From Anaerolineales bacterium (lineage in GTDB: Bacteria; Chloroflexota; Anaerolineae; Anaerolineales; UBA6663), in contig JANWXR010000002.1 in NCBI GenBank assembly GCA_025057205.1, positions 1 to 39,898 on the forward strand: a stretch of 39,898 nucleotides of DNA. The letters run 5' to 3'. Made by a program: the position numbers and the translations under genes. Position 1 is the stretch's first letter; each line of letters opens with the position of its first letter. Shown here one piece after another: positions 4,051-37,915 of this stretch. Under the pieces are notes generated by a model that saw only the letters and a list, made by a program, of their open reading frames with translations, ran no database searches and was not told where the DNA came from.

Positions 4051-4124
4051 GGGCACATTTTCGGTGCAAAGGCGTACAGGCGCAAGGCGCAAGCACGGCC
4101 CGGGATCACGAACGCAACGCACGT

Positions 4125-6623: not shown

Positions 6624-6648
6624 CGCAGCGAACGAGGGCGCCTTCTGC

Positions 6649-7056
6649 TTAGCTGATGAACTGGATGATGTAGCTGAGGTAGCCGCGCCGGCCGCGCTCC
6701 TTCGTCCACAGCGTTACCGATTTGCGGATGCGCTTGAGGCAGGCCACGATTTCTTCCGGCGTCAGGGGCGTCAGTCCCACATCAACCGGGCGGCCTGCAT
6801 CGTCATACAGGTGCTCACGACCGAGTCGCCAATCGCAGACCGCTTTGACGGTCTCATAGACTTGCTGCGCCGGCGGCGAGAGGCGCACCGCCGGGGCCGC
6901 GCGCCCGCGCACCTCGGCCTGATAAGCGCGTATCAAACCTTCGAGAGCGTGTTCAACGTCCACGTCCAGCAATTGCGGGTTGGATCTGTACACCTGCACG
7001 ATCCCGGACTCGATGTTTTGCAGCACGTCTATATGGTTTTCTTCGAATTCCGTCAT
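6649..7056 (-). CDS. Conserved hypothetical protein (135 aa)
   Basis: A clean ORF with coding-like composition, tightly packed between the DUF72 and CPBP genes on the same strand. I recognise no motif. Confidence 0.55.
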   Translation of the reverse strand: MTEFEENHIDVLQNIESGIVQVYRSNPQLLDVDVEHALEGLIRAYQAEVRGRAAPAVRLSPPAQQVYETVKAVCDWRLGREHLYDDAGRPVDVGLTPLTPEEIVACLKRIRKSVTLWTKERGRRGYLSYIIQFIS

Positions 7057-7071
7057 GTCTGCCTCTGATGG

Positions 7072-13230: not shown

Positions 13231-13243
13231 ACTTGTCTCCAGC

Positions 13244-15961: not shown

Positions 15962-16026
15962 TTCGATAGGAGTTACACAGTTGCGCCCGCGCTTCCGTAT
16001 ATGTGGCGGTCATATCCGCCGGAAGT

Positions 16027-16070
16027 CCGCCAGATATGGCGGCAACTCCCGCCAACTGCGTAAGTCCTAA
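16027..16070 (-). repeat. Short scar resembling the IS terminus and family-B hairpin arm
   Basis: GCCAGATATGGCGGC (16029-16043) equals the family-B hairpin arm. AACTGCGTAAG-TCCTAA (16054-16070) resembles AACTGCGTAAGGTGAG-TTCCTAA at 1436-1458. Confidence 0.35.
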
Positions 16071-16205
16071 CATTCAATTTCGTTTGGCCTTCATCTCGGC
16101 GATGTTCAATGTGCTCCTGGATTTATTTCACTCTCTCCACCCAGACGCCATGCCTCACCCGATGTCCATCGCCGAGTTCGCTCTCTAAAAACTAGCACCA
16201 AAGGT

Positions 16206-16211
16206 TATAAT
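16206..16211 (+). promoter_or_regulatory. Candidate -10 box (perfect TATAAT) upstream of the response-regulator gene
   Basis: A TATAAT hexamer lies 18 nt upstream of the ATG at 16230 in otherwise GC-rich DNA. No convincing -35 was found. Confidence 0.25.
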
Positions 16212-16229
16212 CCTGGTGGGAAAGTCGCC

Positions 16230-17024
16230 ATGAAACTCTCCGGACGCATCCTCATCATTGAGGACGAAGCCAGTCTGCGCCAGACCATGACGCGCATCAT
16301 ACGCCAGACCGGCTGCGAGGTGACCGCCGCCGCCAACGGCGTCGAAGCGCTGCAGCGCCTGGCCACCGCCACTTACGACCTGGCCTACCTGGACATCCAC
16401 CTGCCGGAGATGGACGGCATGCAGGTGCTCCGCGAGATTCATCGTCTGTATCCGCAGATGCCGGTCGTGCTGTTCACGGCATACGCTTCGCTGGATACCG
16501 CCATCGAAGCCATGCGACTGGGCGCGACCGATTACCTGCTCAAGCCGCTCAACCCGGAGCTGCTCATCTCGCGCACCGAGTCCATCCTAAAAAAGCAAGC
16601 AGTGGAGCAGCGCCGGCGCGAATTGCAAGCGCAAATCGTCAACCTCCAGGAAGAGCTGCGCCGGCTGGAAGAAAGCCTAGCCCCGCAGCCCTCGGCCAAT
16701 CTGCCGCAAAGCAGCCGCTTCTTGAAGCTGGGCCAGCTCAGCCTCGACCTGCAGGCGCGCCGCGCCATCTTCGCAGAGCGCGAATTGCAGCTGCCGCCCT
16801 CAGCCTTCGACTACCTGACGGTGCTCATGCGCCACGCCCCGGATGTGGTGGACTATCAGACGCTGGTCAACGAAGCGCAGGGCTACCAGGCCGACCGACG
16901 CGAAGCGCAGGAATTGGCGAAGTGGCACATTCACGAACTGCGCGACTCCCTCGAGCCGGACCCCGGAAATCCGCGCCATATCCTCAATGTTCGCGGCGTA
17001 GGTTATCGTTTGGTTATAGACTGA
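16230..17024 (+). CDS. Response regulator: receiver, coiled-coil linker, OmpR/PhoB-type winged-helix DNA-binding domain
   Basis: REC reads ILIIEDEASL...LAYLDIHLPEMDGMQV...LLKP. The C-terminus reads LSLDLQARRAIFAERELQLPPSAFDYLTVLMRH...VRGVGYRLV. Confidence 0.9.
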   Translation: MKLSGRILIIEDEASLRQTMTRIIRQTGCEVTAAANGVEALQRLATATYDLAYLDIHLPEMDGMQVLREIHRLYPQMPVVLFTAYASLDTAIEAMRLGATDYLLKPLNPELLISRTESILKKQAVEQRRRELQAQIVNLQEELRRLEESLAPQPSANLPQSSRFLKLGQLSLDLQARRAIFAERELQLPPSAFDYLTVLMRHAPDVVDYQTLVNEAQGYQADRREAQELAKWHIHELRDSLEPDPGNPRHILNVRGVGYRLVID

Positions 17025-17049
17025 GGCCACAGGGCCGACGAACTTCGTA

Positions 17050-17150
17050 ACTGGAGTCTGGCAAATTCCGGTTGGGGCACAAGATATGGCGGTTAGGTAA
17101 AGCAGCAGGCCGCCATATCTGGCGCCAAAAGTTCCATTTGCCGGACTCCG
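17050..17150. mobile_element. 101-bp palindromic MITE-like element (family B), copy 2, with a 7-bp direct duplication
   Basis: It is flanked by TTCGTAA at 17043-17049 and 17151-17157. The terminal inverted repeats are CTGGAGTCTGGCAAAT / ATTTGCCGGACTCCGG, with a central 11-bp perfect hairpin. It lies between the regulator and hybrid-kinase genes. Confidence 0.85.
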
Positions 17151-17262
17151 GTTCGTAAAAACCCCGCCCCTTTCCTTAATACAACCCCCTCACTGCGCCT
17201 GCCGCTTTCCCGGCGGCGACGCGACTTTCCCAACTTATGCCTCCAAAACCCAAACAGACCGG

Positions 17263-20199
17263 ATGCCGAAGCCCCGCGATAATAGCAGTATGTTGCCTAG
17301 CCCTCTTGTCTCATCACCCACCGTGCCTGCCCGAATTCTGATCGTTGACGATCACCCCAATACGGCTTCGATGCTGGCGCGCGCTCTCAAACAATTTGAC
17401 AAACCGGTCGAAGTGCTCACCGCCCGCAGTGGGCGCGAAGCGCTAGACATTATGCATCAGCAGCCAGTAGAAGTGCTGATTACCGATTTTATGATGCCGG
17501 GCATGAACGGCCTGGAACTGATCGAGCAAGCGCAGAAGAAGCAGGCGCCGTCGCAGATCATCCTGGTCACCGCGTATGACAGCCCCGGCCTGGCCGCTAC
17601 CGCGCGCCGGCTCAAAGTCAGCCACTATCTTATCAAACCCGTTCAGCCGGAGAAGCTGCGTGACCTGGTGGGACAGGCCATCGAGACGCTTTCCCGGCCT
17701 GCACCGTCAAAGCCGTCCGCCGAGATGCCTCCTGCCTCACAGTTCCGCATCCTCATCGCCGACGACCAATCCGACAACACGCAACTGCTGGCGACGCGCC
17801 TGTCGAGCGAAGGCTACACGTTCATCACTGCCAGTGATGGCCAGGAGACGCTGGACAAAGTTCGCGCCGAAAAGCCCGACCTGGTGCTGCTCGATGTGAA
17901 CATGCCGGGCAAGAGCGGCTTCGAAGTTCTCGCCGAAATCCGCGCCGACCCGGACATCGCCCACATCCCCGTCATCGTGTTGACCGCCGCGCGCACTTCG
18001 GTGCGCGACATCCGCGAAGGCCTCGGCCTGGGCGCGGACGATTACGTGACCAAGCCCTTCGATTGGCGTGAGCTGGCCGCCCGCGTCCGTTCCAAGCTGC
18101 GCGTCAAGTACGCCGAAGACAGACTGCGTCGCCGCAATCGTGAACTCAGCCTGCTGCCGGCCATCGGCCAGGATCTGAGCGCACGCACCGACGTGGACGA
18201 GCTGGGTCATGTGGTGCTGCGCCGCGCCGTGGAGGCCCTCGGTGCGGCCAGCGGCAACCTCGCCCTCATCGGATTGAACGATCAATGGCAGTACCAAAGC
18301 TACATAGCACGCGAAATCAGCGGCTGGGACTGGGAACGGGCGCAGGCCTGGCTAACGGCACGCAGCCTGATTGCCCAAGTGATGAACTCCGGGCAAGGCA
18401 CCATCCTGACCGACACCGCCGGCAACGCCGACTGGCCCCGCTTCGATTCCGACGAAAGCCCGGTGCGCTCGGCGATCTGTGTGCCGCTCCTGGGTCGGCG
18501 CGGCCCCCTTGGCACGCTCACCCTGCTGCACGAAACACCCGCGTACTTCGCCCAGGACCATATCGGGCTGCTGCAAGCCATCGCCAGCCAGGCCGCCATC
18601 GCCCTCGAAAATGCGCAGCTGTATGCCGCCGAGCGGCGGCGCGTGAACGAATTGGTGGCCCTGAATCAGCTCTCACAAGAGCTGGGCCGGATGATGCGCT
18701 CCGAAGAGCTGATTGACAGACTCCCACAGCTCGTCTGTAACGCGCTGGGATACCCCACCGTTACGCTGTGGTTGATGAACTCCGAATCCACCGGCCCGGA
18801 CGCCCTCAAGCTACGCAGCGTCGCCGGAATGGAAAACGCGCCACGCATGTCCCTACTGGCGCTGGCCCCGCAACAGGTAGCCGCAACCGGCCAGCCAGCC
18901 TGCCTCTCCGGTTCGGTGGAAGAGCGCACCGGCCATCGCGCCACGAAGTTGCCCACCAGCCAGCTGCCAACCCACTCGGCGGTGGCCGTGCCGTTGTGCG
19001 AAAAGTCCAGGGTTATTGGCGTAGTCGCCATTCACAGTCGCTTCCCCAACGCTTTCCAGGAAAGTGACCGCGTGCTGCTGGAAACCTTGGCCGCGCAGGT
19101 CATCTCCGCCCTGGAGCGCATCCGCTGGTTCGAGTCGGTGGAGCGTGAGCAGCAGCGATTGGCGGCGGTCCTCAACGCCACGCCCGAAGCCATCTTGGGC
19201 CTGGACGGCTTGGGCAACCTGCAATTCATCAACCCCGCCGGCTTCCGGCTGTGGGACGGCGTGAGCCTGCGCCTAGGCGAACCTTTGCCAAAAGGCACAC
19301 CCTACGATGAGTTGGTGCAGTTCCTCGACCAGGCGCGCGGCATGGCTCAGGCCGGGCTGCTGACGCGCCAGCTGCAATGGCCGGATCGGCGCGTCTTCAA
19401 CGTCTCGGTCACGCCGCTGGAGCCGGACGGGCAGGTCGTCATGCTGCACGATGTGACGCACTTCAAGGATATGGAGCGCGTCAAGAACGAATTCCTGGCC
19501 TCCGCCTCGCACGACCTGAAAAACCCGCTGACCGCCATCATCGGCTACGCCGACCTACTCCAGCGCGTGGATGATCCGACCGAGCGCCAGCTCCAGTTCA
19601 TTCAACGCATTCAAACCGCCTCGAGTCGCATGCTGGACCTGGTGAAAGACCTAATGGAGCTGGCACGCATTGATATGGGCCTAGAATTGCGTAAAGAACG
19701 CCTGGATTTGCACGACCTGCTCGCCGCTGAACTGGAAGACTTCCGTGACCAGGCCGCCGTCAAGCATCAGACTGTTCATTTGGAGCCGGCCACGGGGCCG
19801 GTCGTTGTCGAGGTAGATTTAGCCCGAATGCTGCAAGTGCTGCGTAACTTGGTGAGCAACGCCATTAAGTACACACCTGAGGGCGGGCAAATTACGCTGA
19901 GCGCCTCGGCTAGCGGGCAGGCCGGACAGTTTCAGGTGCGCGATACCGGGCTAGGCATCCCGGCGCCAGACCTGCCGCGCATCTTCGAGAAGTTTTACCG
20001 GGTACACACCACCGATCGCGAGGGCATCGAAGGCAGCGGCCTCGGCTTGGCGATCGTCAAAGCCATCGTTGAGCAGCATGGTGGTCAGGTTGCCGTGGAG
20101 AGCACACTCGGACGCGGCAGCTGCTTTACCGTGACGTTGCCTTTGGCCGAGATAGCCGAGACAACCCACAAACCGCTTCCCGTTCAAGCCGAATCTTAA
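17263..20199 (+). CDS. Hybrid sensor kinase: REC, REC, GAF, GAF, PAS, HisKA, HATPase_c
   Basis: There are two receivers (ILIVDDHPN...ITDFMMPGMNG and ILIADDQSDN...LLDVNMPGKSG). The H-box is FLASASHDLKNPLTAIIGY. ATPase boxes are LRNLVSNAIKYT, DTGLGI and GSGLGLAIVK. An alternative ATG lies nine codons downstream. Confidence 0.9.
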   Translation: MPKPRDNSSMLPSPLVSSPTVPARILIVDDHPNTASMLARALKQFDKPVEVLTARSGREALDIMHQQPVEVLITDFMMPGMNGLELIEQAQKKQAPSQIILVTAYDSPGLAATARRLKVSHYLIKPVQPEKLRDLVGQAIETLSRPAPSKPSAEMPPASQFRILIADDQSDNTQLLATRLSSEGYTFITASDGQETLDKVRAEKPDLVLLDVNMPGKSGFEVLAEIRADPDIAHIPVIVLTAARTSVRDIREGLGLGADDYVTKPFDWRELAARVRSKLRVKYAEDRLRRRNRELSLLPAIGQDLSARTDVDELGHVVLRRAVEALGAASGNLALIGLNDQWQYQSYIAREISGWDWERAQAWLTARSLIAQVMNSGQGTILTDTAGNADWPRFDSDESPVRSAICVPLLGRRGPLGTLTLLHETPAYFAQDHIGLLQAIASQAAIALENAQLYAAERRRVNELVALNQLSQELGRMMRSEELIDRLPQLVCNALGYPTVTLWLMNSESTGPDALKLRSVAGMENAPRMSLLALAPQQVAATGQPACLSGSVEERTGHRATKLPTSQLPTHSAVAVPLCEKSRVIGVVAIHSRFPNAFQESDRVLLETLAAQVISALERIRWFESVEREQQRLAAVLNATPEAILGLDGLGNLQFINPAGFRLWDGVSLRLGEPLPKGTPYDELVQFLDQARGMAQAGLLTRQLQWPDRRVFNVSVTPLEPDGQVVMLHDVTHFKDMERVKNEFLASASHDLKNPLTAIIGYADLLQRVDDPTERQLQFIQRIQTASSRMLDLVKDLMELARIDMGLELRKERLDLHDLLAAELEDFRDQAAVKHQTVHLEPATGPVVVEVDLARMLQVLRNLVSNAIKYTPEGGQITLSASASGQAGQFQVRDTGLGIPAPDLPRIFEKFYRVHTTDREGIEGSGLGLAIVKAIVEQHGGQVAVESTLGRGSCFTVTLPLAEIAETTHKPLPVQAES

Positions 20200-20322: not shown

Positions 20323-22818
20323 GTGCATCTGATGTCATCTCCCTCCCCACAGAACACATCGGCAACGCCAGCGCCCGCTATGCCAACTTCGGCGGAAGCA
20401 AAAAACGCGCAGCGCGCCGCCCTGATTACGCTCATCGTCACCGCCGGGTTGACGGTGTATTTTGGGTTTCTGGCTTACCGGCAGCTCGATACCAACTCGA
20501 TCTGGGCTACGCTGAATACGCTCGGCATGACGCTGGCCAACCTGGCCGGCTTCTGGTTCAGCCGACGGGGTCGCCATGTGCTCGGAACATGGCTGGTTCT
20601 GGGCGGCTTGATGGTCGGCGTAGTGACATCACCGGCCATACGAGCCGGTCTGGGCCTGGCCCTCTTTATTAGCGCACCCTTGTTTGTTGCCGTCGTTGCC
20701 GGTCAGACCCTGCCGCCACGACAGGTTCCCTGGGCCGTCGGCCTGGGGGTCGGGGCAGGCATCATCGCCGGGCTGGGAGACTACTTCTGGCCGTGGCCCC
20801 GCCCCCTCTCGCCGGTCTATCAAACCCTGCCCATCATCGCCACCGGCGTGGTGCTGATACTGGGCTGGGGGATCGTGCGCCGCTTCCCGCACTACAGCCT
20901 GCGTACCAAGCTGTTGATAAGCTCCGTCACCGTGGTGGCGCTAACGGTCGGCGCACAATCCATCATTTTCAGCCAAATCGCCACCTCCGAAATTCGTGCC
21001 CAGGTGGGCAACAGTCTGGTCGCTCTGGCTGAGGACCGGGCAACGACCATCGGCAGCCGGATCGGCCTGCAGGCGGACGTGCTGCGCGCGCTGGCGCTCA
21101 ACAAGTTCCTGCAGGACGGGCTGGAAGAGGCCAGTCGCACCAACACGCAGAGCGCCGAGGCCCTGCGCGCCGCCGATGAGCGCTGGCGCCGGGCCGTGGA
21201 GGCAGGCCGGCCGGACGACCCGCTTATCCTTCAGGTGCTCAACCATCCACTGGCCGGCGAACTCAATGAACTCCGCGAGCGTTTCTCGCAATCCGAGCTG
21301 TTCCTGACCACCGACCAACACGGCGCTACGGTCGCATCCACCCAGGTCGTAGAACGTTACTATCACGGCGACGAGGCCTGGTGGCAAACGGCCTCTTCAC
21401 GCGGCATCTTCATCGGCCTGATTGAGCAGGGTTTCGGTGGTCCTCGACTCGGCATTGCCGTTGCCGTGCCCGCTCACGAGCGTGAGCAGATCGTCGGCGT
21501 GGCGCTGACCTTGCTCCACCTCGACCAATTTGCGGATGACCTGGCAAGCGCACGCCGCGGCAAGACAGGCCGCACCGAGATTTACTTCGAAGGTGGGGGT
21601 GGGCTGAAGTTACACGAAGCTGCCGACGGCAGCCTCAAACTCGAACTAGAGAGAGAGGCGAGGTTAGATTTGCAGCGGTTGATTGCGTCATCGGAGCCAT
21701 TCCTTGAGATCGAACACGATGGAAAGGTGGCGTTATCCAGCTCTGCGCGCGTCCGTTCCAATCTCAAGGCAGACCCTATCGGCGACGAGAGGGGCTCCAT
21801 TACTGGCCTGGGCTGGTACGTCGTTGTCTCTCAAGAAAAGAACGAGGCTCTGGAGCCGGTGGCTGTGATCATGCGCGCCAACTTTCTCATCACAGTCGTC
21901 GCCCTGCTGATTGCCGGCCTGGCAGCGGTGGTGGTGGCCCAATTGCTGACGCGCCCCCTCACCCGTCTGACCGCCGTGGCCGCCCGCGTCTCCGCCGGCG
22001 ACCTGAAGGTGCAGGCACCGGTGGAAAGCGGCGACGAGATCGGCGCGCTGGCGACGACCTTCAACGTAATGACCACACAGCTGCGTGAAACGCTCGAGGG
22101 CTTGGAACAGCGCGTGGCCGACCGCACGCGCGCCCTGGCCACCAGCGCTGAAGTCAGCCGACGGCTCTCCACCCTCCTTGACCCTACTGAGCTGGTGAAG
22201 CAGGTCGTTGAGCGAGTACAGCGCGCGTTCGGCTATTACCATGTACACATCTATCTGTTCGATGAGTCGCGTGAAAATCTGGTGATGAGGGGCGGCACGG
22301 GCGAGGCCGGCGCATTGATGCTGACACGCGGCCACAAGCTGCCGCGCGGCAAAGGCTTAGTCGGCCGCGCCGCCGAGACCAACCAGATCGTGCTTGTGCC
22401 CGAAACCGCGCGCGACCCCGGCTGGCTGCCCAACCCGCTGCTGCCGGAAACGAAGGCTGAGGTCGCCGTGCCTATTGCCATCGGTGAAGAAGTGCTGGGT
22501 GTGATCGATGTCCAGCACAACGTGGTCGGTGGGCTGACGCAAGACGACGCCGACCTGCTCCAGGCGATTGCGAACCAGATGGCCATCGCGCTCCAGAACG
22601 CCCGCATCTACCGGCAGGCGCAACGCCGGGCCGAGGTGGAAGCGCTGGTGAACTCCATTAGCCAGAGGCTTCAATCCACCACAACGGTAGATGAGGCGCT
22701 TCAAGTAACGGCGCGCGAAGTGGGCCGCGCCCTGGGCGGCGTGCGCGTACAGGTGCGTCTGGCCCCAACAAACGGACACACAGCGCCGCCGACCGGCGTT
22801 GCGGAATCGCAGAACTAG
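20323..22818 (+). CDS. Membrane sensor with no recognisable output: multi-TM N-terminus, Cache-like periplasmic domain, HAMP, GAF, conserved C-terminal tail
   Basis: The N-terminus has about six hydrophobic helices. A Cache-like segment reads ...[19 protein letters not shown].... HAMP reads [44 protein letters not shown] reads [13 protein letters not shown]...[30 protein letters not shown]. The protein ends 65 aa after the GAF domain with no kinase, cyclase, GGDEF or HTH. The track start at 20323 is GTG. An ATG alternative is at 20332. Confidence 0.85.
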
Positions 22819-22828
22819 GGAACCCGCT

Positions 22829-25552
22829 ATGCCACCAAACACTTCTGCGCCTTACCTCTCTCACGGCCACGACCCGTGGCTGGTCATGTTGTCCGTCGCG
22901 ATGGCGGTGCTGACGGCATACGCCGCGCTCGAACTGGCGTGGCGCATAGTTGGGGCGCGCGGCCGGGAGCGCTATCTGTGGCTGGCCAGCAGCGCAGTCG
23001 CTCTCGGCGCCGGCGCCTGGTCCGCGCATTTTATTGGGATGTCGGCCCTTCAGCTGCCTGTGCCGGTGCGGTATGACGTGCTCACCGCGCTGGCGGCGCT
23101 GCTGCCGGTGGTGGCCGGCGCAGCGCTGGCATTCTGGCTCAGCGGCAGAGCCAGAGCCGAAGTACGCCCGTGGCAGATCGGCCTGGCTGGCTCGGTCCTG
23201 GGCGGGGCCATTGCCGGTATGTACTTCATCGGCATGGCTGCCCTGCGCCTCCGAGCGACGTTCAGCTACGACCCGGCCTGGTTGGCGTTTGCGTTCGTCG
23301 TCGCCACAGTCACTTCGAGCTTTGCGCTTTGGCTGCACGTAGGCCTCCGTGCCGCCGCTACGTCTGCTAGGCAGCTGGGCAAAATCGCCGGCGCCCTGGC
23401 GCTGGGCGGCGCGATTGCCGGCCTGCACTACGCCGGGATGCGCGCGGCTAAGTTCCTGCCGACGACCGACTACTTGCCTAATCCCATCGGCCTGGTTGAC
23501 ATTGACGTACTCGGCTCCGCAGCCATCATCGTTGGCGTTCTAACCGTAATCACCACCGGCCTGACGGTCTTGGTGTTCAACCAACAATTGCTGAGTCAAC
23601 TCAGCTTTACACGCAAATTCCTGCTCGTCAGCGCGCTCTTCATCACGCCGCTTCTTGTCGTCATCGGCGTGTTCTCCTTCGAGCTGTACGATCGTATTGA
23701 TAAATACGGCTACCGCGAACTGTACGGCGTTCGCTATGTGACGCCGCTGCAAAGCCTGCTCGTTAACTTGCAATTGCATCAGGAAGCGCTGGCCGAATAC
23801 GCCGCCGGCCGACTGACCGAACAGCAGTTGCTCGACGTTCGGAGCGCCGTTGATGCCGACTTAGCCACCCTTGCCGAACTAGACCGCCGGTATGGCACGA
23901 TATTGCAAACTAACACATGGCTATCCAGTCTGAGGTATAAGTGGTCTGGCCTGCAAAGCCAGACACTCCGGTTCTCGCCACAGGCCGCCCGGTTGCGTCA
24001 TATCGAATCGGCAACGAACGTACGTGAGTTGATCGCCTACATCGGCGACAGCTCTTTCCTAAGCCTTGACCCCGACCTGGATAGCCACAACTTAATGAGG
24101 GCAACACTAATCCACCTGCCGGATAATCAAATGTTGCTCAACCGGTCGGCGCAGATGTTCCTGGCAACACTACACGGAGAACTGGTAACGCCGGAAGAAA
24201 GAGCACAGCTCTCAGCAGCGCTCACATTATTGCGTGCTAATCTCGATGCGTTGGAGGCTGAGCTTGAGGTAGCTTATCGCAACCACCCAGACGGCTTCAT
24301 TGAGCCGAACCTTGCACCGGAGTTTGCCGCCTATCGCCAGGTCCTGACAGAATATTTGGACTTCCTGAAATTTCAGCTGAACCTGACGAAACCGACGGTC
24401 TCCCTCTCGGATGCCCGGCGCCTCATCGGCGAAGCGCGCGCCGCAAATCAGCGGTTTTACGCTGTGGTCAGTGAAAATTTGGCCGCCAGCATCCAGGGCC
24501 GGATTGACCGCTTGACTTTTCGCCTGGCCAGTTTGGTTGGGTTCAGCCTATTCACCGGCGCCTTGGCGCTGGCCTTCGGCCAGGCGGTGTTCCGCGTCAT
24601 CCTTCGGCCGCTGCGCGCCCTGACTGACGCCACACAGGCTCTAGCAGGCGGCGATTTGAGCGTGCGCGTCAACGTGGTCGGCTCTGATGAGATAAGCACG
24701 CTGGCGCTGGCCTTCAACGACATGGCCCGCCGCCTGCAGCTGAGCCAGACCGAATTGGCTGAGCGCAACCGCGCTTTGGCCACTTCGGCAGAGGTCAGCC
24801 GCCGCCTCTCGACGCTGCTGGATGAAAAGCAGCTGGTGCGGGAGGTCGTCGAGCAGTTGCAACTGGCCTTCGGCTATTACCATGTCCACATCTACCTTTT
24901 CGACGAGCAGCGCGAAAATCTGATAATGGCCGGCGGCACCGGCCCGGTGGGCGCGGCGCTGCTAGAGCGCGGCCACAAGCTACCACGTGGCAAGGGCCTG
25001 GTCGGCCGCGCCGCCGAGACCAACGCACCCGTCATCGTGCCGAACACCACGCTCGACCCAGGCTGGCTGCCCAACCCGCTACTGCCGGACACCAAAGCCG
25101 AAGTCGCCGTCCCCATCGCTCTGGGCAACGAAGTGCTCGGTGTGCTGGACGTGCAGCAGAACATGGTCAACGGCCTCTCGGCTGCCGACGCTGAGATGCT
25201 TCAGGCCATCGCCAACCAGGTCGCGCTGGCGCTGCGCAACGCGCGCTCCTATGCCCGCGCGCAACGCACCGCCGAGCGCGAGGCTTTGGTCAACAGCATC
25301 AATCGCAAGATCCAATCTGCCGCTAGCCTGGAATCCGTGCTAGACATTGCCGCGCGCGAACTAGGCCTGGCGCTGAGAGCGCGCACCGCCGTTGCAGAAC
25401 TCAACCTGCGCCCCGCAATGGAACGCTCAACCACTATTGCGACGGCTGACGAACGAAGGCCGAGCGCTCGCGCCAAACTTGAAATAAGCAGAGCGAACCC
25501 GGTCAGCACCGGCTTCATTGACGCAGAAACCAACGGCCGCAGTCACAGTTAA
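22829..25552 (+). CDS. Membrane sensor with no recognisable output: MHYT domain, helical periplasmic/linker domain, HAMP, GAF, conserved C-terminal tail
   Basis: Three MHYT-type motifs are present ([29 protein letters not shown]) in six TM helices. HAMP reads [41 protein letters not shown]. The GAF domain is about 75% identical to that of the preceding gene. I chose the ATG at 22829 because the track start at 22799 is TTG and overlaps the previous gene. Confidence 0.85.
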
Positions 25553-25561
25553 AGTCGCGCT

Positions 25562-28500
25562 ATGAACGCACCTGAACTATCTCCCCACAAGAAAGCCGTA
25601 CCCGGCCTGAACACATTGCAGCGCATCTGGCAATCGCTGGTGCAGCCATCGGCGCTTATCACCGAAATCGGCGAACGCCGCCAGGCCGAGCTGCTGGCCT
25701 CCCTGACGCTGATCTTCATTTCTCTCTCGAGTGCAGGCGCGTTTGCCAACCTGGTGACCGTGCCAGGCCGCGGGTTCAATGCCGCCTCATGGGCGCTGTT
25801 GGCGACGACGCTCGTGACGCTGGTCGCATATCTTCTTAGTCGCAGCCGCTATTTTCGTCTGGGCGTGTGGCTCCTCATCATCATCCTTGTTGCAGGTGGC
25901 TTCTCTTTGGCTCAAAGTGACCCGAGCCGCGCCAGCTTTGCACTCTTCAGGTTTGTGCCACTTGCATTTGTCGTCACCAACATCTTTTTGAACTTTACCG
26001 GCGCCGCCATTGTGATGGCACTAACCGTTGCTGCCTTGCTGATGCTGCCTCTCTGGCTCGACGTGACGCCGCGCGAGGCCACTTCGCTGGCCGGTGCCCT
26101 TGGCGCGTTTGGCACGTTGCTGCTCATTGCCGCCGGCTTCCGCAACAAACTGGAACGCGACCGCCTGGCCGAGCTCTCGGCAGCCAATGAGAAACTGCGA
26201 ACCCTCGGTGCACTGCTGGAACAACGCGTCGCCGAACGTACCCGCGACATTATCCTGGCCGCCGACGTGGGCCGGTCATTAGCCAAAGCTCGCGACCTTG
26301 ACACACTCCTGGCCGACGCTGTAGAGCTGATTCGCGAACGCTTCGACCTGTATCACGTTCAAATCTACGTGACGGACTCCGCCGGGCACAAATTGCTGCT
26401 CCGCGCCAGTAGCGGCGAGGTGGGCGCAGAGCTGCTGCGCCGTCGACACTACCTGCCTGTCAGCCTCGGCTCGCTCAACGGCCAGGCAGCACTGGAACGC
26501 CGCCCAGTGCTCGTCACCAACACACTGTCCGACCCCAACTTCAAGCCCAATCCTCTCTTGCCGGAGACCCGCTCCGAGGCCGCCATCCCGCTTATCGCCG
26601 AAGGCCGTGTGCTGGGCGTGCTCGATCTGCAAAGCAATCAACCGGGTGCGTTCACGGCAGAGAGCCTGCCCGTCTTCGAGACACTGGCCGGCCAGCTCAC
26701 GATCGGCATCGAAAACGCGCTCCTGCTGCGGGAGGCCGAAGCCGCTCGCAACGAGCTGGCCGAGCAAACGCGCCGCCTCAGCCGCAGCGGCTGGCAGGCT
26801 TTCCTCGATGCCATTCACCGGGCTGAACATGTGGAACGCCGCTATGTGAGCGAGGCAGCAGAAGCCACAGAGCTCGCAGCAGCGGACGAAGAACGCTCCG
26901 TTTTGACCGTGCCCATGACCATCGCCGGCGAAGCCATTGGCGCACTGCGGGTGGAGGCCGGCGAACAACGTAGCTGGTCGGCAGATGAAGTCGAATTGGT
27001 AGAGGTGGTTGCTCGGCAGGTAGCCGCGCATCTGGATGACCTGCGCCTCATCGCTCAGGCCGAGCAATACCGCGCCGAGGCCGAGGACGCTATGCGTCGC
27101 CTGACGCGAGAGAGCTGGCAGATGTACCTGGTCGAAGCCGAGAAACCGCCCGCCTACGTGTACGACGGCGAGCAAGTTCAGACCGTGTCCGATGAAACCG
27201 CTTCGGTTGAACCCAGGCACATCTGGCCGCTGACCTTGCACGGCGAACGACTGGGCGAAATTGCCATCGAGGCCGAGACCGTCGGGCCGGAGGCCGAGCA
27301 CATCCTCGCTGCCGTCGCCGAGCGCCTCAGTGTGCATCTGGAGAACCTGCGCCTCTCCGCCCAGACCGAGCAGGCGCTCACCGAGAATCAAAAACGCGCC
27401 GACCAGCTAGCCCGACTCTCCGAGATAGAACAGGCGCTCTCATTGGCAAAGACCGAAGAGGAAATCATCGAAGCTATACAGCCCGCCTTCGACGCAAAGA
27501 ACCTGACGGCCATCACCCTTACCTACATCACCGGCGACGAACGCGGTCGGGCGATGACGCTCGATGGCGCGGCAGTCTGGGCTGACGGACGGTTCTGCCA
27601 CGACCGGTTGCCTGCTCTACAAAACCTGAGCCTTGAGAAGCACCCCCTCACACCGCTCTGGATGACGCGTGCCGCCGAACCGACCTTTGTCGGCGATGTG
27701 CTGACCGACCCGCGCGTCGGTGAAGCGGTACGGGCGTTGGCCCGTGAAGAGGGTTGGCGTTCACTGCTGTTGCTACCGCTCCGCAGCGGTGGCCGGTGGC
27801 AGGGGCTGCTCACCGTGAGCTGGGCAGAGCCGCGCACGCTTAGCGCCGATGAGGCCTTCTTCGCCGAGCGGTTGCTGGAGTCGGTGGCCGGCGTTACCGC
27901 CACCCGTTGTGCTTCCCTGGCGCAACAACGAGCTCTGGCAGAAAACCTGCGCCGCAACGAGGAACTGACCGCCCTCAATCGGCTTGTCATTAGCGCCGCT
28001 TCCGCGCGCGACGTGACGGAGCTGCTGCAATCCGCCGCCCGCGAAGTGGTGCAGCTGCTGCACGCCCGCAGCGCCGCCTTCGCCCTGCTGGAGCCGGACG
28101 GCCAGCATCTGCGATTGATCGCCGACTACACTACCACCAGCGACGAGCCGAGCGCCGTCGGCATGCTCATCCCCCTGGCGGGTAACCTCTCGACTCAATG
28201 GGTGTTCGAGCACCGGCGCGCGCTGGTGGTGAATGACGCCCAGAGCAATCCGCTGACGACGCCGATCCACGAGCTGATGCCCACGCGCCGGACGCAGGCG
28301 TTGCTCATCGCGCCATTGACAGTCCGCGGCGAGGTCATCGGCACGCTGGGCGTAGACCTGGAAGAAGTGGGCCGCACCTTCACCCCAAACGAAGTCTCGT
28401 TCGTCGAAACGCTGGCCGGCCAGCTGGCCGGTGTGCTGGAGAACCTGCGCCTCTACGCCGAAGCGCAACGCCGCGCCGAGCGCGAGTACCTCATCAACAC

Positions 28501-28633
28501 CATCACGCAGAAGATCCAGAGCACGACCACCGTGACCGGCGCACTGCAAACAGCCGTGCAGGAGCTGGGGCTGGCACTCAAAGCCAAACGTACACATGTA
28601 GAGCTAAGCCCGGCGCCGATCAACGGCCACTGA
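25562..28633 (+). CDS. Membrane-anchored multi-GAF protein (1023 aa) with no recognisable output and the same conserved C-terminal tail
   Basis: It has about five N-terminal TM helices, then a coiled coil, then repeated GAF and half-GAF-like modules ([30 protein letters not shown]; ...[16 protein letters not shown]...). It ends [50 protein letters not shown]. Confidence 0.85.
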   Translation: [1023 protein letters not shown]

Positions 28634-29400
28634 AGAAGTTATGGCCATGCCCTATGTGATTGCACTTTGGCATCAGAAAGGTGGAGTCTCCAAGACCACC
28701 ACGGCCTTAGCGTTGGCCGCCTGCCTAGTGGAGAAAGCTCACCCAACCCTGTTGCTGGACCTGGATCCACAGGGCAACCTGACCACCGGCCTAGGTCTCA
28801 ACCCGGCAGAAGCGCGTCACTCCCCCGCCGACTTGCTGCTTGGCAATGACACCGTCTCCCGCGTCGTTTGTGCAACTCCCTGGCCTGGCCTGGACATTAT
28901 CCCCTCCAACCCGGACATGGTGACGGTGAGCCGGTGGCTGCATGTGCGCGAGGGCTACGAGCCGGTGCTGCGCCATGCGCTGAGCCGGCCGGACGTTGCC
29001 GGTTACGACTTCGTCTTCCTCGATTGCCCGCCGATGCTCGGCCCCATCACCATCGCCGCGCTCACCGCCGCCCAGCTGGTCATCGTGCCCACGCAGTGCG
29101 AATACTTCTCGGTGCAAACGCTGGGCAGCAGCCTCAAGCTGGTACAGCTGGTGCGCGGGCGCACCAACCCGGGCTTGGCCTACCGCGTGCTCGTCACCCT
29201 CTTCGACCTGCGCGGCGCGCTGCACAGCCGCGTCCTCGCCCAATTGCAGCAACACTTCGCACCGGCCATGTTCCAAACCATCATCGGTGTGGACTCCAAG
29301 CTGCGCGAAAGCCAGCTCGTCGGAACGCCTATCACCTTGCATGCCCCTCATAGCCGAGGCACCCAGCAATATCGTCAACTGGCCGAGGAACTTTGCGCCT

Positions 29401-33975
<4,575 letters not shown>

Positions 33976-34033
33976 GTTTAGAAGGGAATTCGCCTCATTC
34001 GAGCCGTTCCATTCGTTTATAAATTTTCTTTAC

Positions 34034-35710
34034 ATGGCACGACCTTCCTATCTTGAGTGCGTTCACTGCGGCGATCGGCAGCCGTACGTTCCGTTCATAC
34101 CGCCGGTGTGTGCACGCTGCGGCTCAGAGTGGCTAGAGCCGTGGTACGACTACGCCGCCTTTAAGCGCGAGCTGCTGCGCGGGTTGCCAGGCCGCCCGGC
34201 CAATTTGTGGCGCTACCACGACGTCCTCCCGGTGGACGACCCGTTGCGCTTCGACCTGAACAGCGCCGGCGGTACGCCCATGTTGCACTCGCGCCGCTAC
34301 GCCGACCGCCTGCGCCACGCACAGCTCTACATCAAGGATGAACGCCATGGCCCGACCAGCTCGTTCAAGGACCGGCAGGCCGCGGTGGCCGTCGCCGCCA
34401 TGCTGGAAGCCGGCGTCCGTGAGTGCGTCATCGCCTCCACCGGCAACGCTGCCGTTGCCTACGCCTCCGCTTGCGCGCGTGCCGGCATCAAGCTGTGGGT
34501 GTTCATGACCAGCCTGGTGCCCAACGAGAAGCTGCGCGAAGCGGCGCTCTTCGGCGCAGAGGTCATCAAAGTCAGCGGCAACTACGACCAAACCAAGCAA
34601 ATCGCCGCTGACTTCGCCAAACGCCGTGGCCTGCTGCTGGACCGCGGTGCGCGCAGCATCCCGGCGCGTGAGTCCATGAAGACCATCGCCTATGAGATCG
34701 TCGAGCAGCTGGGCTGGCGCGCGCCGGACTGGTACATCCAATCGGTCAGCGGCGGGCTGGGGCCGCTCGGCGTCTATCACGGCTTCAGCGAGCTGCAACA
34801 CATGGGCCTGATTGACAAAATCCCCAAGCTGGGCATCATTCAGGCCGAAGGTTGTGCGCCGATGGTGCGCGCCTTCAAGGCAGGGCGGGACACCGCTGAG
34901 CCGGTGACGCCCGAGACGCGCATCGCCGTGCTTTCCACCGGCGACCCGGGCCGCACCTACACCTATCTCTGGCAGCTGGTGCAGAAGCATGGCGGCGCCA
35001 TGGAGAGCGTCTCCGACCATGCGGCCTGGGACTCGATGCTGACGCTGGCCAAGGCCGAAGGCATGGCCGTCGAGCCGGCTGCTGCCGTCGCCTTTGCCGG
35101 CTTCGAAAAGCTGCTAGCTCAGGGCCATATCCATTCGGAGGAGCTGGTCGTGATCAACGGCACCGGCCACACCTTCCCTGTGGAAAAGCACGTGCTCGGC
35201 GAGCAGTGGCACGTGGACGTGCACTTGAGCGACGACATGCGGCCGGCCCCGCGCGAGGGCCTGCTCGCCGCGCTCAACCAGCTCGATGAGAAGGTGACCA
35301 GCGTGCTGCTGGTGGACGACAATCCCGACGACGCGCTGCTCATCCGGCGGTTGCTGGAGAACCGCAAGTCGTACCGCGTCTTCACCGCCAGCAACGGCGT
35401 GGATGGACTGCGGCAAGCTCGCGAGCGCCTGCCTGACTTGATCATCACCGACCTAACCATGCCGGAAATGGATGGCTTCACTTTGCTGGAAGAATTGCGT
35501 CATGACGCGCGCACCCGCAACATTCCGGTAATTGTGGTCAGTGCACGCGACATCACCGCCGACGAGCGTGCCCGCCTGAACGAGGCAGCGATCGAGGCTC
35601 TTTACGAGAAAGGCTCACTCTCACCACGTGCGTTCGTGGAACAGGTCGTACAGGTGATCGGCGACAAGACGTCGCCGGGTGGAAAGACATCGCCGAACGG
35701 AGGTCATTGA
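34034..35710 (+). CDS. Threonine-synthase-like fold-type-II PLP enzyme with an N-terminal zinc ribbon, fused to a C-terminal receiver (REC) domain
   Basis: A CxxC...CxxC ribbon is present (CVHCGD...CARCGS). The PLP-lysine motif is PTSSFKDRQAAV, and STGNAA and GGLGPLG motifs follow. The C-terminal REC reads VLLVDDNPDDALLIRRLL...LIITDLTMPEMDGFTLL...VVSA. Confidence 0.8.
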   Translation: MARPSYLECVHCGDRQPYVPFIPPVCARCGSEWLEPWYDYAAFKRELLRGLPGRPANLWRYHDVLPVDDPLRFDLNSAGGTPMLHSRRYADRLRHAQLYIKDERHGPTSSFKDRQAAVAVAAMLEAGVRECVIASTGNAAVAYASACARAGIKLWVFMTSLVPNEKLREAALFGAEVIKVSGNYDQTKQIAADFAKRRGLLLDRGARSIPARESMKTIAYEIVEQLGWRAPDWYIQSVSGGLGPLGVYHGFSELQHMGLIDKIPKLGIIQAEGCAPMVRAFKAGRDTAEPVTPETRIAVLSTGDPGRTYTYLWQLVQKHGGAMESVSDHAAWDSMLTLAKAEGMAVEPAAAVAFAGFEKLLAQGHIHSEELVVINGTGHTFPVEKHVLGEQWHVDVHLSDDMRPAPREGLLAALNQLDEKVTSVLLVDDNPDDALLIRRLLENRKSYRVFTASNGVDGLRQARERLPDLIITDLTMPEMDGFTLLEELRHDARTRNIPVIVVSARDITADERARLNEAAIEALYEKGSLSPRAFVEQVVQVIGDKTSPGGKTSPNGGH

Positions 35711-35711
35711 G

Positions 35712-36092
35712 ATGGCTCCAACGATTCTCTACATCGAAGACAACCCGGACAACATGCTGCTGGTGCAGCGGGCGCTGGAGGCACGCGGTTACAACTTTCT
35801 CTGGGCGGCCAACGGCTTGAGCGGTTTGGCGGAGGCTGAGGCCAAACGCCCCGACCTGATCCTGCTCGACATCAACCTGCCCGATATTGACGGTTACGAA
35901 GTGGCGCGCCGCATCCGCGCCCACGCCGAGCTGCGCACGCTGCCCGTCATCGCCATCACCGCCAACGCCCTGCGCGGCGACGCCGAGAAAGCGCTTAACG
36001 CCGGCTGTGATGTGTACATGTCCAAACCCATCAACATCCGTGAACTGTGGGCTAAGATTAATTCCTTCTTGCCGAACGGAGCAGGCTTCTGA
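35712..36092 (+). CDS. Single-domain response regulator (CheY-like receiver)
   Basis: ILYIEDNPDNMLLVQRAL...LILLDINLPDIDGYEV...ITANALRGD...YMSKP. A GGAGG sequence lies 8 nt upstream of the ATG. The start is 1 nt after the stop of the preceding gene. Confidence 0.9.
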   Translation: MAPTILYIEDNPDNMLLVQRALEARGYNFLWAANGLSGLAEAEAKRPDLILLDINLPDIDGYEVARRIRAHAELRTLPVIAITANALRGDAEKALNAGCDVYMSKPINIRELWAKINSFLPNGAGF

Positions 36093-36126
36093 AAGACCCC
36101 GCGATTTATCCCTTTGCCCCCACACC

Positions 36127-36160
36127 AACCGGCCGGACTTGGCACCGTCGGTTTCTCTTT
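36127..36160 (+). terminator. Weak candidate intrinsic terminator after the receiver gene
   Basis: AACCGGC...GCCGTCGGTT forms a 7-bp stem including one G-U pair. It is followed by the T-rich TCTCTTTC. The loop is long, so this is low quality. Confidence 0.3.
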
Positions 36161-36244
36161 CTATCCTCTCAAAATTCTGCCGACCGTCGCCAAGTCACCA
36201 ACAAATTCAAACTGTTCACGCCCTTCTGCACTACCACCGAACCC

Positions 36245-36273
36245 TTCCCACCTTTGCCCAAAGCATTTATGAT
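36245..36273 (+). promoter_or_regulatory. Candidate sigma-70-type promoter for the riboswitch transcript
   Basis: TTCCCA (36245-36250), a 17-nt spacer, then TATGAT (36268-36273), about 50 nt upstream of the aptamer. It overlaps a perfect 9-bp inverted repeat CTTTGCCCA/TGGGCAAAG (36252-36260 / 36275-36283). Confidence 0.35.
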
Positions 36274-36321
36274 ATGGGCAAAGTGAGTCACGGAGCCTGG
36301 CAAATCTTCAGGCTCTAGCCA

Positions 36322-36412
36322 TACAGAAAAAGGCAAACCCGTCGAAAGGCGGGGGCGCAAAGTTACGGGTCTAAGCGCTTGCGGCTGCAAGCGGATGATC
36401 GCCGGACTGCCT
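36322..36412 (+). promoter_or_regulatory. c-di-GMP-I (GEMM-I)-like riboswitch aptamer
   Basis: The sequence reads GGCAAACCCGUC-GAAA-GGCGGGGGCGCAAAGUUACGGGUCUAAG-CGCUUGC-GGCU-GCAAGCG-GAUGAUCGCCGGACUGCC. It has the hallmark GGCAAAC, a GAAA tetraloop hairpin, the GCGCAAAG junction, and a UCUAAG...GAUGA tetraloop-receptor-like hairpin. From memory, V. cholerae Vc2 reads GGCAAACCAUUCGAAAGAGUGGGACGCAAAGCCUCCGGCCUAA. GGCA (36332-36335) can pair with UGCC (36408-36411). Confidence 0.7.
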
Positions 36413-36433
36413 GACGAACCACTTGCTCTCCCA

Positions 36434-36468
36434 ACCTCGGCAGTCCGCAAATGCCGAGGTTCTTTGTT
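36434..36468 (+). terminator. Intrinsic terminator (riboswitch expression platform)
   Basis: A perfect 9-bp stem ACCTCGGCA / TGCCGAGGT (36434-36442 / 36452-36460) has a 9-nt loop and is followed by TCTTTGTT. Its 5' arm and loop, GGCAGTCCG (36439-36447), are perfectly complementary to CGGACTGCC (36403-36411) in the aptamer's 3' strand. Confidence 0.7.
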
Positions 36469-36636
36469 ACTCGGTCTGTGTTGTTGACGGAGATTGATGA
36501 TGACAGCCTGACGCCGGTTTGCCCACTCATCGTTAACCACCGGTAAAAAGCCTCGCTAGATTGCGTCAAACTCGTGGGAGATCGCGGCGCCGTCGCCATC
36601 ACCCCCGAAAAGTTTCTTAGTTAGAAAGGTGCTCTC

Positions 36637-36846
36637 ATGTCCCACAATCCTCACTGGCTCTCAGCGGATACCGATACCGAACTCACCTGGCCGGCGTGGC
36701 TGCTTTCGGACACGCTGACGGACGATGCCTCACCGCTGAAAAGCCTGGCGCGCCATCGTCGTTACGGCTACAACGCCGACGAACCCTCACCCTCGCCGCT
36801 GCGCATCATCGCGCGCGATCGGCGCCCACCGCGCGCCACGCGCTAG
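36637..36846 (+). CDS. Hypothetical small protein (69 aa), possibly the first piece of a decayed gene
   Basis: The ATG is preceded by GAAAGG. About 75% of third codon positions are G/C (counted by eye), similar to real genes here. I recognise no motif. Coding-like signal continues downstream, but only in shifted frames. Confidence 0.3.
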   Translation: MSHNPHWLSADTDTELTWPAWLLSDTLTDDASPLKSLARHRRYGYNADEPSPSPLRIIARDRRPPRATR

Positions 36847-37616
36847 CCGCCGCTATATGGCCGGCACGCTCACGCCGAACAGTGCCGTGCCGGTGATGGA
36901 ACTGGGCCAGCGGATGCTACGCCGCTATACGGCGCTGTCATTGCGCCGTAACCGCTGAAGATGCGGTTGCCATCGAACGTGACGTGGCGTTCGGTAACGC
37001 AGCCGTGGCCACAACCGCCGCGCGGCTGGCCTTCGCGATGTCGCACGTGAAGGTGTTCCCTCTCAGTATGACCTCATCCCTAATGGACGGTGAAGGCTAC
37101 GTAAAGGTCGAGCAGGGAAGGCGGATAAGGCTATACTTTGGCGATTGTCTCCACTGAACCATCGCGGTTCGACACCTCCGCCGCCACTTTAATCGTGGTT
37201 GAGGAGGTGTCCTATAATCAGCAGTTGGGCCTATCCGTCCACAGGCAGACGCTGAGTTGTTGCAAGAGTGCTCGTGATGGTAGGGTTCGGTCACAACACA
37301 ATCGTCTCGTGATGAAAAGGCGAGCAGCAGCGTAGGCCTTGGGAAGGCAGAGCGGCATTCGTCACGGTCACAATGACCGGCAAGGTGATGTGGGCTTGGT
37401 GTGACAAAGTGCTTGCGATTGGCGACGGCCTGGGTGAGCAGTGGCCAACCATCGGAGAGTTGGGGAGAACGTCTAGCGCGGTCGGGGAACGGCAAAACGA
37501 TATTCAGGGTTGAGCGTGGCCGGTTGTCGGGCGATGGTGTGGTGCAACCACAGCAAGCGTATAGGTCAAGGTCTTTGTGGGTTCAGGTTCGTTCCGGCGC
37601 ATAAGCTGCGTGGGTT

Positions 37617-37718
37617 TAGAGCGATTTCCAGCTTGATTTACGGCAAGGCGTACAAAATTCGAGCTATTTTCAGTGAATTTCTACTGTGGAGCCGTAAATC
37701 AATTAGGAATTCGCTCTA
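37617..37718 (+). mobile_element. 102-bp MITE-like element (family A), copy 3, intact
   Basis: TAGAGCGATTTCCAGCTTGATTTACGGCAAGGCGTACAAAATTCGAGC...AATTAGGAATTCGCTCTA has 13-bp terminal inverted repeats with one mismatch and begins and ends with TA. Confidence 0.85.
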
Positions 37719-37915
37719 GGCGCGGCGTGGGCCGGTCATGACCCGCCCCAACAGGCGGTTTCCAGCCGACCGCTTCGCTCCGCTGCGTGGGTGGCTAAAA
37801 CCCAAGCCGTTAGCCCACCTGGTCCGCCAGGTCGTGCAGTCCATCTTCGGGAGCTATCGCGCTTTACGTTTTTACCAACCGATTGTGGTTTCGTGATGTA
37901 TTGACAATTGGGTGT

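Follow-up and report, generated by a model that had tools for sequence, protein, structure and literature searches.

A 39,898-nucleotide stretch of DNA from an Anaerolineales bacterium (contig JANWXR010000002.1 of assembly GCA_025057205.1; the stretch as a whole is called the window here) encodes a protein in which a threonine synthase (ThrC)-like, pyridoxal phosphate (PLP)-dependent enzyme is followed by a phospho-receiver (REC) domain. The fusion is genuine, old and widespread, and the protein seems to be an enzyme-type response regulator of a kind not described before; we know of no response regulator with a PLP-dependent amino-acid-type enzyme as its output, and full-text literature searches brought up no description of a ThrC- or PALP-receiver fusion. 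Judged by its sequence and gene context, the protein may be a response regulator whose catalysis is gated by phosphorylation and whose PLP domain, derived from ThrC, has been re-specified for its substrate, a reading to which we assign a probability of roughly 0.45, i.e. somewhat short of even odds. The substrates would probably still be small amino-acid-like molecules undergoing beta or gamma elimination or replacement.

How firmly can the two domains be said to belong to one protein? The original prediction had described them as fused, with the reservation that a sequencing frameshift might have joined two separate genes. A cluster search of a 5.8-billion-protein collection, in which the best 120 clusters were inspected, found PF00291 and PF00072 together in all of them, at 72-91% identity and over roughly the full length (the family comprises more than 120 clusters). 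Named members among these best clusters come from Anaerolineales or Chloroflexota metagenome-assembled genomes (MAGs) and are labelled ‘threonine synthase’ or ‘pyridoxal-phosphate dependent enzyme’, the latter being all that the NCBI name says for most members. When each GTDB species was represented by a single genome, a scan returned 567 relatives, the best 80 of which, all full-length and nearly all labelled Anaerolineae/Anaerolineales, were taken for locus analysis. The same fusion recurs in hundreds of independent assemblies (NCBI, JGI, ENA, Logan), and homologues align across the joint between the two folds, with G409, A413, L414, L417 and E419 invariant. The open reading frames (ORFs) of 70 loci from the P0126 and P0122 scans were also analysed; two cut by a contig end were set aside, and the remaining 68 comprised 51 one-receiver fusions (546-607 residues), 11 two-receiver fusions (712-734 residues) and six unfused proteins (402-429 residues), so that the fused architecture was upheld in 62 of the 68. 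An assembly or frameshift artefact can be dismissed with near certainty, because hundreds of relatives carry the same fusion and the ORF runs continuously through a junction across which they align.

The taxonomic spread of the pairing, which had been left to be established, extends over hundreds of Anaerolineae plus other Chloroflexota lineages. In a phmmer search over 1.84 billion 50%-representatives, where the main family collapses to one representative, more distant fused forms appeared at 43-52% identity, including proteins of ~710 residues; a search seeded with one of the latter delineated a second subfamily of 117 clusters (686-726 residues, order ThrC-like-REC-REC), which is ~50% identical to the main family and whose hosts are Anaerolineae, Aggregatilineales, Phototrophicales and other Chloroflexota MAGs. 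Could these ~710-residue proteins (P0121 and P0122) have arisen by the joining of a ThrC-REC protein to REC2, the stand-alone receiver encoded next to it? This explanation was rejected, as their second receiver is 40-46% identical to the first fused receiver vs 31-37% to REC2, and downstream of two-receiver fusions there is still a distinct REC2-like gene (48-53% identity in L205, L207 and L209). By its sequence, the second receiver is a product of internal duplication of the first.

A neighbour-joining tree of the PLP domains (100 bootstraps) places the fused proteins, together with a few unfused ones, in a single clade (94/100), apart from which stand both the canonical ThrC group (83/100) and the group formed by ThrC2 (100/100), an unfused ThrC-type protein encoded near many of the fusions and treated below. 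Because the unfused members of the clade (L157, L158, L167, L176, L187 and L199) nest among fused Anaerolineae proteins, the tree suggests that they arose by secondary loss of the receiver. Their contigs (five checked, i.e. all but that of L187) have a GC content of 0.43-0.47 and cyanobacterial-type neighbours (LptC, Dus, DUF2301 and an SDF symporter), and since nested unfused genes sit on such low-GC contigs, it also seems that the PLP gene without its receiver was transferred into cyanobacteria.

The domain layout that had been read from the letters alone was borne out by Pfam, by direct reading and by invariance among homologues. The cysteines of the N-terminal zinc ribbon are at least 90% conserved among 121 homologues and vary in none of 23 diverse clade members, the ribbon being shared with ThrC2 and with the ThrC-type proteins P0193 and P0237, and the SFK(112)DRQA motif and the S135-T-G-N138 and S239-G-G-L-G-P244 loops are all invariant. 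The C-terminal receiver, read directly as LLVD428D429NPDD ... IITD473LTMPEMDG ... VVS503A ... YEK526G, has the canonical form that had been claimed for it. Between the two lies the stretch of about 40 residues that had been called a linker; the stretch is indeed present (residues 377-421), but it is no loose linker, as its length and pattern align with the C-terminal tail of unfused ThrC-type proteins and it is among the best-conserved parts of the whole protein. AlphaFold2 (AF2) was run twice, on alignments of 121 and 147 sequences, with predicted template-modelling scores (pTM) of 0.65-0.69; in the better model (pTM 0.69, mean predicted local distance difference test score, pLDDT, 84.3) the PLP region mostly reaches 75-98 and receiver residues 421-530, with a (beta-alpha)5 pattern, reach 81-96. 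In both runs the connector has a pLDDT of ~30.

To which enzyme family does the PLP domain belong? Its best relatives by sequence among solved structures are threonine synthases (Aquifex 2ZSJ at 1.7e-37, Thermus 1UIM, Mycobacterium tuberculosis 2D1F and Bacillus subtilis 6CGQ), and Foldseek, given the better AF2 model, likewise ranks ThrC structures first (2d1f, 2zsj and 1uin, with template-modelling (TM) scores of 0.82-0.84 at 29-31% identity). Among the NCBIfam models, TIGR00260 thrC is passed by 1.8 bits (168.9 vs a cut-off of 167.1), and four of the five ThrC cut-offs shown are failed, namely PRK08197 (250.4/303), PRK05638 (181.8/421), PRK08329 (138.7/358) and PRK06450 (126.9/301), as is that of cysteate synthase (TIGR03844, 121.8 vs 324.9). 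Motifs were compared with those of three solved ThrCs (Thermus, Aquifex and Mycobacterium) and of two zinc-ribbon ThrCs with canonical motifs, P0237 and P0193, the second of which comes from a Planctomycetia MAG. All five have FKDRGMT, STGNT, (V/L)NS-xNPxRxEGQKT and PVGNAGN, for which the fused clade has instead FKDRQA, STGN(A/V/I), xD(R/K/Q)G, (R/K/V)E(S/A)MKT and VSGGxGP; the fusion itself reads xDRG..RS.PARESMKT in place of (V/L)NS-xNPxRxEGQKT, and at the positions conserved in canonical ThrC it carries A139, R204-G205, A211 (next to R212, a position that is R, K or V across the fused clade) and S239-G240-G241. In the Thermus thermophilus ThrC complexes of Omi 2003 and Murakawa 2011, T88, N154, S155, R160 and N188 are reportedly the ligands of the substrate phosphate, and we take the positions replaced in the fusion to be the O-phosphohomoserine phosphate site of canonical ThrC. 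As the alignment with the five proteins does not show this conserved set of substrate-site motifs in the fusion, membership of the threonine synthase equivalog cannot be demonstrated for it. The database name ‘threonine synthase’ is probably wrong for the fusion. The earlier choice between a genuine threonine synthase and a paralog thus leans towards the paralog, given a clade of its own, the failed cut-offs and the altered site residues.

Might these changes simply reflect decay? The PLP scaffold that canonical ThrC and ThrC2 have in common is invariant in the same 23 diverse members (K101, E103, F111, K112, R114, G137, N138, E213, K216, E221, Q270, G321, D328, G343, P348 and G378), and ~25 further positions are invariant within the clade yet unlike both canonical ThrC and ThrC2, including R104, Q115, Y143, W155, Y184, K188, D203, G205, M215, W233, Q236, S239, P244, T302, G306, Y309, N375 and T380. 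It is from the invariance of the scaffold, taken together with this separate set of residues, that the PLP domain is read as a selected, re-specified active site and not as one in decay. In the receiver, none of D428, D429, D473, S503 and K526 varies among the 121 sequences of the family, and all five stay at 90% conservation or more when the two-receiver subfamily (~50% identical) brings the alignment to 147 sequences; the receiver's sequence matches in the PDB are RR468-type, PleD and CheY receivers, and in one distant representative, P0128, the receiver looks degenerate by eye. Its residues predict a fused receiver fully competent for phospho-acceptance. A pseudo-receiver or a pseudo-enzyme in a decaying gene, the latter a concern raised at the outset, was rejected because the phospho-acceptor and PLP-scaffold residues are all retained.

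The setting of the gene is that of a signalling module. As had been noticed, the fusion follows a giant kinase and precedes a second receiver gene, REC2. The histidine kinase stops 58 nt before the fusion, the fusion ends in a TGA stop at 35708-35710, and the ATG of REC2 (35712), with a GGAGG just upstream, lies 1 nt past it. Pfam detects neither a receiver nor a histidine phosphotransfer (HPt) domain in the kinase, which is therefore non-hybrid, and a promoter and terminator scan of 33800-37900 gave nothing informative. In the evaluable ones of the 80 main-family Anaerolineales loci, the gene that ends directly upstream of the fusion is that of a homologous GAF-HisKA-HATPase kinase (73/73) and the one that follows is a REC2 orthologue (79/79, 66-99% identity); 13 of the 80 have two tandem REC2-like genes. 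Independent gene calls in locus L284 give the order PAS-HAMP-GAF, dCache_1-HAMP-GAF, dCache_3-HAMP-GAF, GAF kinase, PALP+REC, REC, PALP, all on one strand and with gaps of 2-55 nt. In other Anaerolineae lineages the kinase may precede or follow the fusion, on either side of which single receiver genes, one to four of them, may lie; the fusion, a GAF kinase and extra receivers are kept together wherever flanking sequence exists. No DNA-binding or other classical output domain was found by Pfam in the kinase-fusion-REC2 unit, nor any kinase, cyclase or other output or transmitter domain in the three large sensor proteins encoded upstream of it in the window. Matches to these sensors (tblastn) occur upstream in most of the 80 loci, GAF and HAMP repeats blurring which gene was matched. 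It is probable that the sensors are inputs to the kinase, possibly through GAF-GAF contacts; the three sensors and the adjacent kinase together have at least 13 GAF domains.

How could such a module work? If the fusion is a phosphorylation-gated enzyme, three membrane sensor-HAMP-GAF proteins would pass signals to the soluble PAS/GAF histidine kinase, which would transfer phosphate to REC2 as well as to D473 of the fused receiver. Once phosphorylated, the fused receiver would change its contacts, either by a dimerisation that acts on the ThrC-type dimer or by docking at, or release from, the active-site cleft in the manner of PhyR, and the changed contacts would switch PLP catalysis on or off, REC2 serving as a parallel branch or output or as a phosphate sink. 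The switching step is conjecture because neither AF2 model gave a confident arrangement of the PLP and REC domains, good as both domains are in them, and this counts against the gated-enzyme account, as do four other points. The C-terminal position of the receiver and the one to four extra receiver genes would be accounted for equally well by a phosphorelay or sink with the PLP domain as input. An essential housekeeping enzyme, too, might be expected to be as highly conserved as the 72-92% found within the order. The altered active-site residues would be compatible both with binding of O-phosphohomoserine through other basic residues, the clade-invariant R104 and K188, and with ordinary ThrC activity. 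Finally, sequence by itself does not separate a regulated enzyme from a PLP ligand sensor or from a regulatory subunit of ThrC2.

Could the fusion then be an ordinary housekeeping threonine synthase that has acquired a receiver as an appendage, much as plant threonine synthase has a regulatory extension that binds S-adenosylmethionine? Threonine synthases are what it matches best in sequence and in fold, TIGR00260 is marginally passed, its conservation spans an order and at least 567 species-level genomes, and R104 and K188 could stand in for the lost phosphate ligands. We nevertheless regard this as rather unlikely, for the four PRK cut-offs were failed, the canonical STGNT, NS..NPxRxEGQKT and GNAGN motifs are replaced, and the gene sits among sensors, kinase and receivers with no hom or thrB match in the Pfam hits of the scanned window genes or of the L284 neighbours. 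A further point against it is ThrC2, the unfused zinc-ribbon ThrC-type gene (about 392-400 residues) that follows REC2 on the same strand, with gaps of ~40 nt, in 35 of the 66 evaluable main-family loci. Its score on the PRK08197 ‘threonine synthase’ model is 568-585 bits, against a cut-off of 303 and a score of 250 for the fusion; its identity to the fusion is only 31-35%, it falls in another clade, and it keeps the arginine of PYR.EG where the fused clade has R, K or V. The search for a separate thrC, proposed earlier, has therefore succeeded in part: many fusion-bearing genomes, at least 35, have a ThrC-type gene of the PRK08197 class in the same gene row, but none follows REC2 in the window, in its five closest relatives (L001-L005) or in 26 other loci, i.e. 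in 31/66 overall, a lack of any demonstrated second ThrC homologue in about half of the genomes that favours the housekeeping reading.

ThrC2 also occurs alone in other Anaerolineales and, at 55-57% identity, in Acidobacteriota. Stand-alone copies lie beside rpoD, aroK/aroB/aroQ, a class-V aminotransferase or a major facilitator superfamily (MFS) transporter, and neither hom nor thrB was seen beside the copies inspected; a housekeeping role would agree with this neighbourhood, which does not decide the matter. Its PRK08197 label may even hide a function like that of MetM, a ThrC homologue discussed below. Some copies end in Gly-Gly (L118, L136 and L155), and no plausible small ORF with such an end, as in a ThiS- or MoaD-like carrier, was found beside the fusion or ThrC2 in the window, L001-L156, L284 and L285.

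A different possibility is that the PLP domain is not an output at all but a ligand sensor, which would form an external aldimine with an amino-acid-like metabolite, as in GabR/MocR, and tune the phosphate on the receiver and its flow to REC2. The C-terminal receiver, the constant REC2 partner (79/79), the up to four further receiver genes elsewhere, the internally duplicated receiver in ~117 proteins and the want of a classical output in the kinase-fusion-REC2 unit would all suit such a role, and Lys112 and the PLP loops would be retained under it just as well. Invariance, however, extends to the whole catalytic scaffold, beyond the residues that bind PLP, and because the rare receiver-less members sit in non-signalling, cyanobacterial-type neighbourhoods, the PLP domain appears to have a stand-alone, probably enzymatic, function; moreover, we know of no PLP sensor domain of fold type II. 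The ligand sensor is, in our view, quite unlikely.

Two further scenarios would give the fusion a partner or a product within the module. The first is a PleD-like circuit, in which the phosphorylated receiver would turn on a ThrC-derived PLP enzyme that makes or destroys a small amino-acid-derived molecule, an intracellular signal read by some of the many GAF domains. This is very unlikely as matters stand; if true, it would amount to a self-contained circuit of two-component signalling and small-metabolite second messenger specific to filamentous Anaerolineae. The second holds the fusion to be a regulatory paralogue of ThrC2 that would form phosphorylation-dependent heterodimers or complexes with it (ThrC-type enzymes are dimers) and so control the synthesis of threonine or homocysteine. 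The place of ThrC2 in the gene row and the zinc-ribbon ThrC architecture common to both proteins speak for it. Yet ThrC2 is missing from that place in the window and in nearly half of the loci, is never adjacent to the fusion in the other Anaerolineae lineages outside the Anaerolineales that carry it, and exists alone elsewhere, and the fusion, so distant from it in sequence, has retained its own full active site; such a partnership is highly improbable.

How does the candidate gated enzyme compare with known response regulators? Several enzyme-type ones are established, including the CheB methylesterase, the PleD and WspR diguanylate cyclases, the HD-GYP protein RpfG, and RegA. In these, as in the fusion, a receiver is covalently joined to a catalytic domain and encoded beside a kinase; unlike the fusion, with its C-terminal receiver and PLP enzyme, they have N-terminal receivers and outputs that act on nucleotides or modify proteins. 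The reverse order, effector first and receiver last, is that of PhyR and CheV, where phosphorylation of PhyR releases the effector domain, and in this respect they resemble the fusion; their effectors (sigma-like and CheW-like, respectively), in contrast, are non-catalytic protein-binding modules. If phosphorylation does gate catalysis by the fusion, a two-component system would directly control a step that forms an amino acid or metabolite, and environmental sensing would be coupled post-translationally to central or signalling metabolism. Nor is the fusion a rare oddity, being found in hundreds of Anaerolineales species, with one- and two-receiver forms in other Anaerolineae orders; hosts of the Anaerolineae type are common in wastewater, sediments and groundwater and have been poorly studied by experiment.

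Among enzymes, the fusion is closest to canonical ThrC (1UIM/1V7C, 2ZSJ, 2D1F and 6CGQ), with which it shares the fold, the FKDR lysine, the S-T-G-N loop, the C-terminal tail and E213, K216, Q270, D328, P348 and G378, and some ThrCs also have an N-terminal zinc ribbon; it differs in its low identity, separate clade, replaced motifs, C-terminal receiver and location in a signalling cluster. Cysteate synthase (TIGR03844; CapA2, 9K3C) is likewise a ThrC-derived PLP enzyme acting on an O-phospho amino acid, and has a TM-score of 0.73 to the fusion; the E-value of the fusion in the PDB sequence comparison is only 6e-13, however, and its TIGR03844 score is far below the cut-off. The homocysteine synthase MetM, which depends on MetO thiocarboxylate, is homologous to ThrC and ‘often misannotated’ as such (10.1101/2024.10.14.618325; PMC12172450). 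It offers a precedent for a ThrC homologue that diverged towards a new nucleophile. Microcystis aeruginosa has a divergent ThrC with threonine deaminase as a side activity, and the Microcystis protein is reported to be 51.6% identical to MetM (PMC12172450). Here, too, a ThrC lineage has departed from the canonical type, with altered or dual chemistry, and unfused members of the fusion clade also lie on cyanobacterial-type contigs; unlike the fusion, the Microcystis protein has no receiver domain. Beside cysteate synthase and MetM, the fusion clade would be another functional offshoot of the ThrC family.

Table 1. Coordinates of the fusion gene, its parts and its neighbours (positions in the window unless a related locus is named).
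Feature	Position	Strand	Basis or remark
ThrC-like PLP enzyme-receiver fusion	34034..35710	+	ATG start, ORF of 558 aa; Pfam PALP + Response_reg
N-terminal Cys4 zinc ribbon (C9, C12, C26, C29)	34058..34120	+	CxxC...CxxC read directly
Fold-type-II PLP domain (PALP, residues 78-376)	34265..35161	+	Pfam E 3e-66, 224 bits
Schiff-base Lys112 codon	34367-34369	+	motif SFK(112)DRQA
STGNA loop (S135-T-G-N138-A139)	34436-34450	+	S135-T-G-N138 part invariant
Gly-rich SGGLGP loop (S239-G-G-L-G-P244)	34748-34765	+	
ThrC-type C-terminal tail = inter-domain connector (residues 377-421, 45 residues)	35162..35296	+	conservation, tail alignment
Receiver (REC) domain, residues 422-545	35297..35668	+	Pfam Response_reg residues 424-517, E 1.6e-19
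REC acidic pair DD (D428-D429)	35315-35320	+	
REC phospho-acceptor D473	35450-35452	+	
REC S503	35540-35542	+	
REC K526	35609-35611	+	
REC2, stand-alone receiver, 126 aa	35712..36092	+	Pfam Response_reg E 2.9e-27
Presumed cognate histidine kinase, 1524 aa	29401..33975 (most likely)	+	Pfam PAS x4, GAF x4, HisKA, HATPase_c; H-box His1291
ParA/MinD-like ATPase	28641..29432	+	Pfam AAA_31/CbiA; overlaps kinase start by 32 nt
Large sensor, HAMP-GAF	20323..22818	+	Pfam
Large sensor, MHYT-HAMP-GAF	22799..25552	+	Pfam
Large sensor, transmembrane + 4 GAF	25562..28633	+	Pfam
ThrC2 example, locus L020	12056-13234		
ThrC2 example, locus L284	12079-13290		

The ParA-like gene upstream of the kinase (Table 1) is also found in L001, L003, L004 and L054 and in the distant loci L194, L195, L214, L217, L221-L223 and L225. 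Its membership of the module is uncertain; the ATPase may position the signalling complex.

Several other features of the window and its relatives deserve mention. A second two-component block lies upstream of the sensors at 13184..20199 (+), with a PAS-GAF kinase (13184..15961), an OmpR-type regulator (16230..17024) and a REC-REC-GAF-GAF-HisKA-HATPase hybrid (17263..20199), so that the window is unusually dense in GAF signalling proteins, its signalling genes containing at least 18 GAF domains in all. Downstream of REC2, a c-di-GMP-I (GGC variant) riboswitch aptamer was detected at 36323..36415 (+), at 71.3 bits vs a gathering score of 59. It appears to control nothing in the window, because the lower-GC stretch of ~1.8 kb in which it lies (36100..37880) has no ORF longer than 135 residues. 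In the closest relative, L001, the orthologous riboswitch (12381-12471) precedes a 480-residue HD_5 (HD-GYP-type) gene that is missing in the window, and L002 has two such riboswitches, each ahead of a subtilase.

ARAGORN calls a tRNA-Gln(ttg) of 93 nt at 4102..4194 (-), inside a 922-residue ORF at 1549..4317 (-) with weak matches to HerA-like ATPases; the call is probably false or in need of checking. The window and L001 are otherwise collinear over 25813..36468, and a rearrangement between the two genomes is indicated, as 5708..7921, with its Rce1-like and DUF72 genes, corresponds to 16508..14311 of L001, inverted and on the opposite side of the module. In L284, a protein with TIR and FGE-sulfatase domains is encoded at 15181..16632, ~2 kb downstream of the module.

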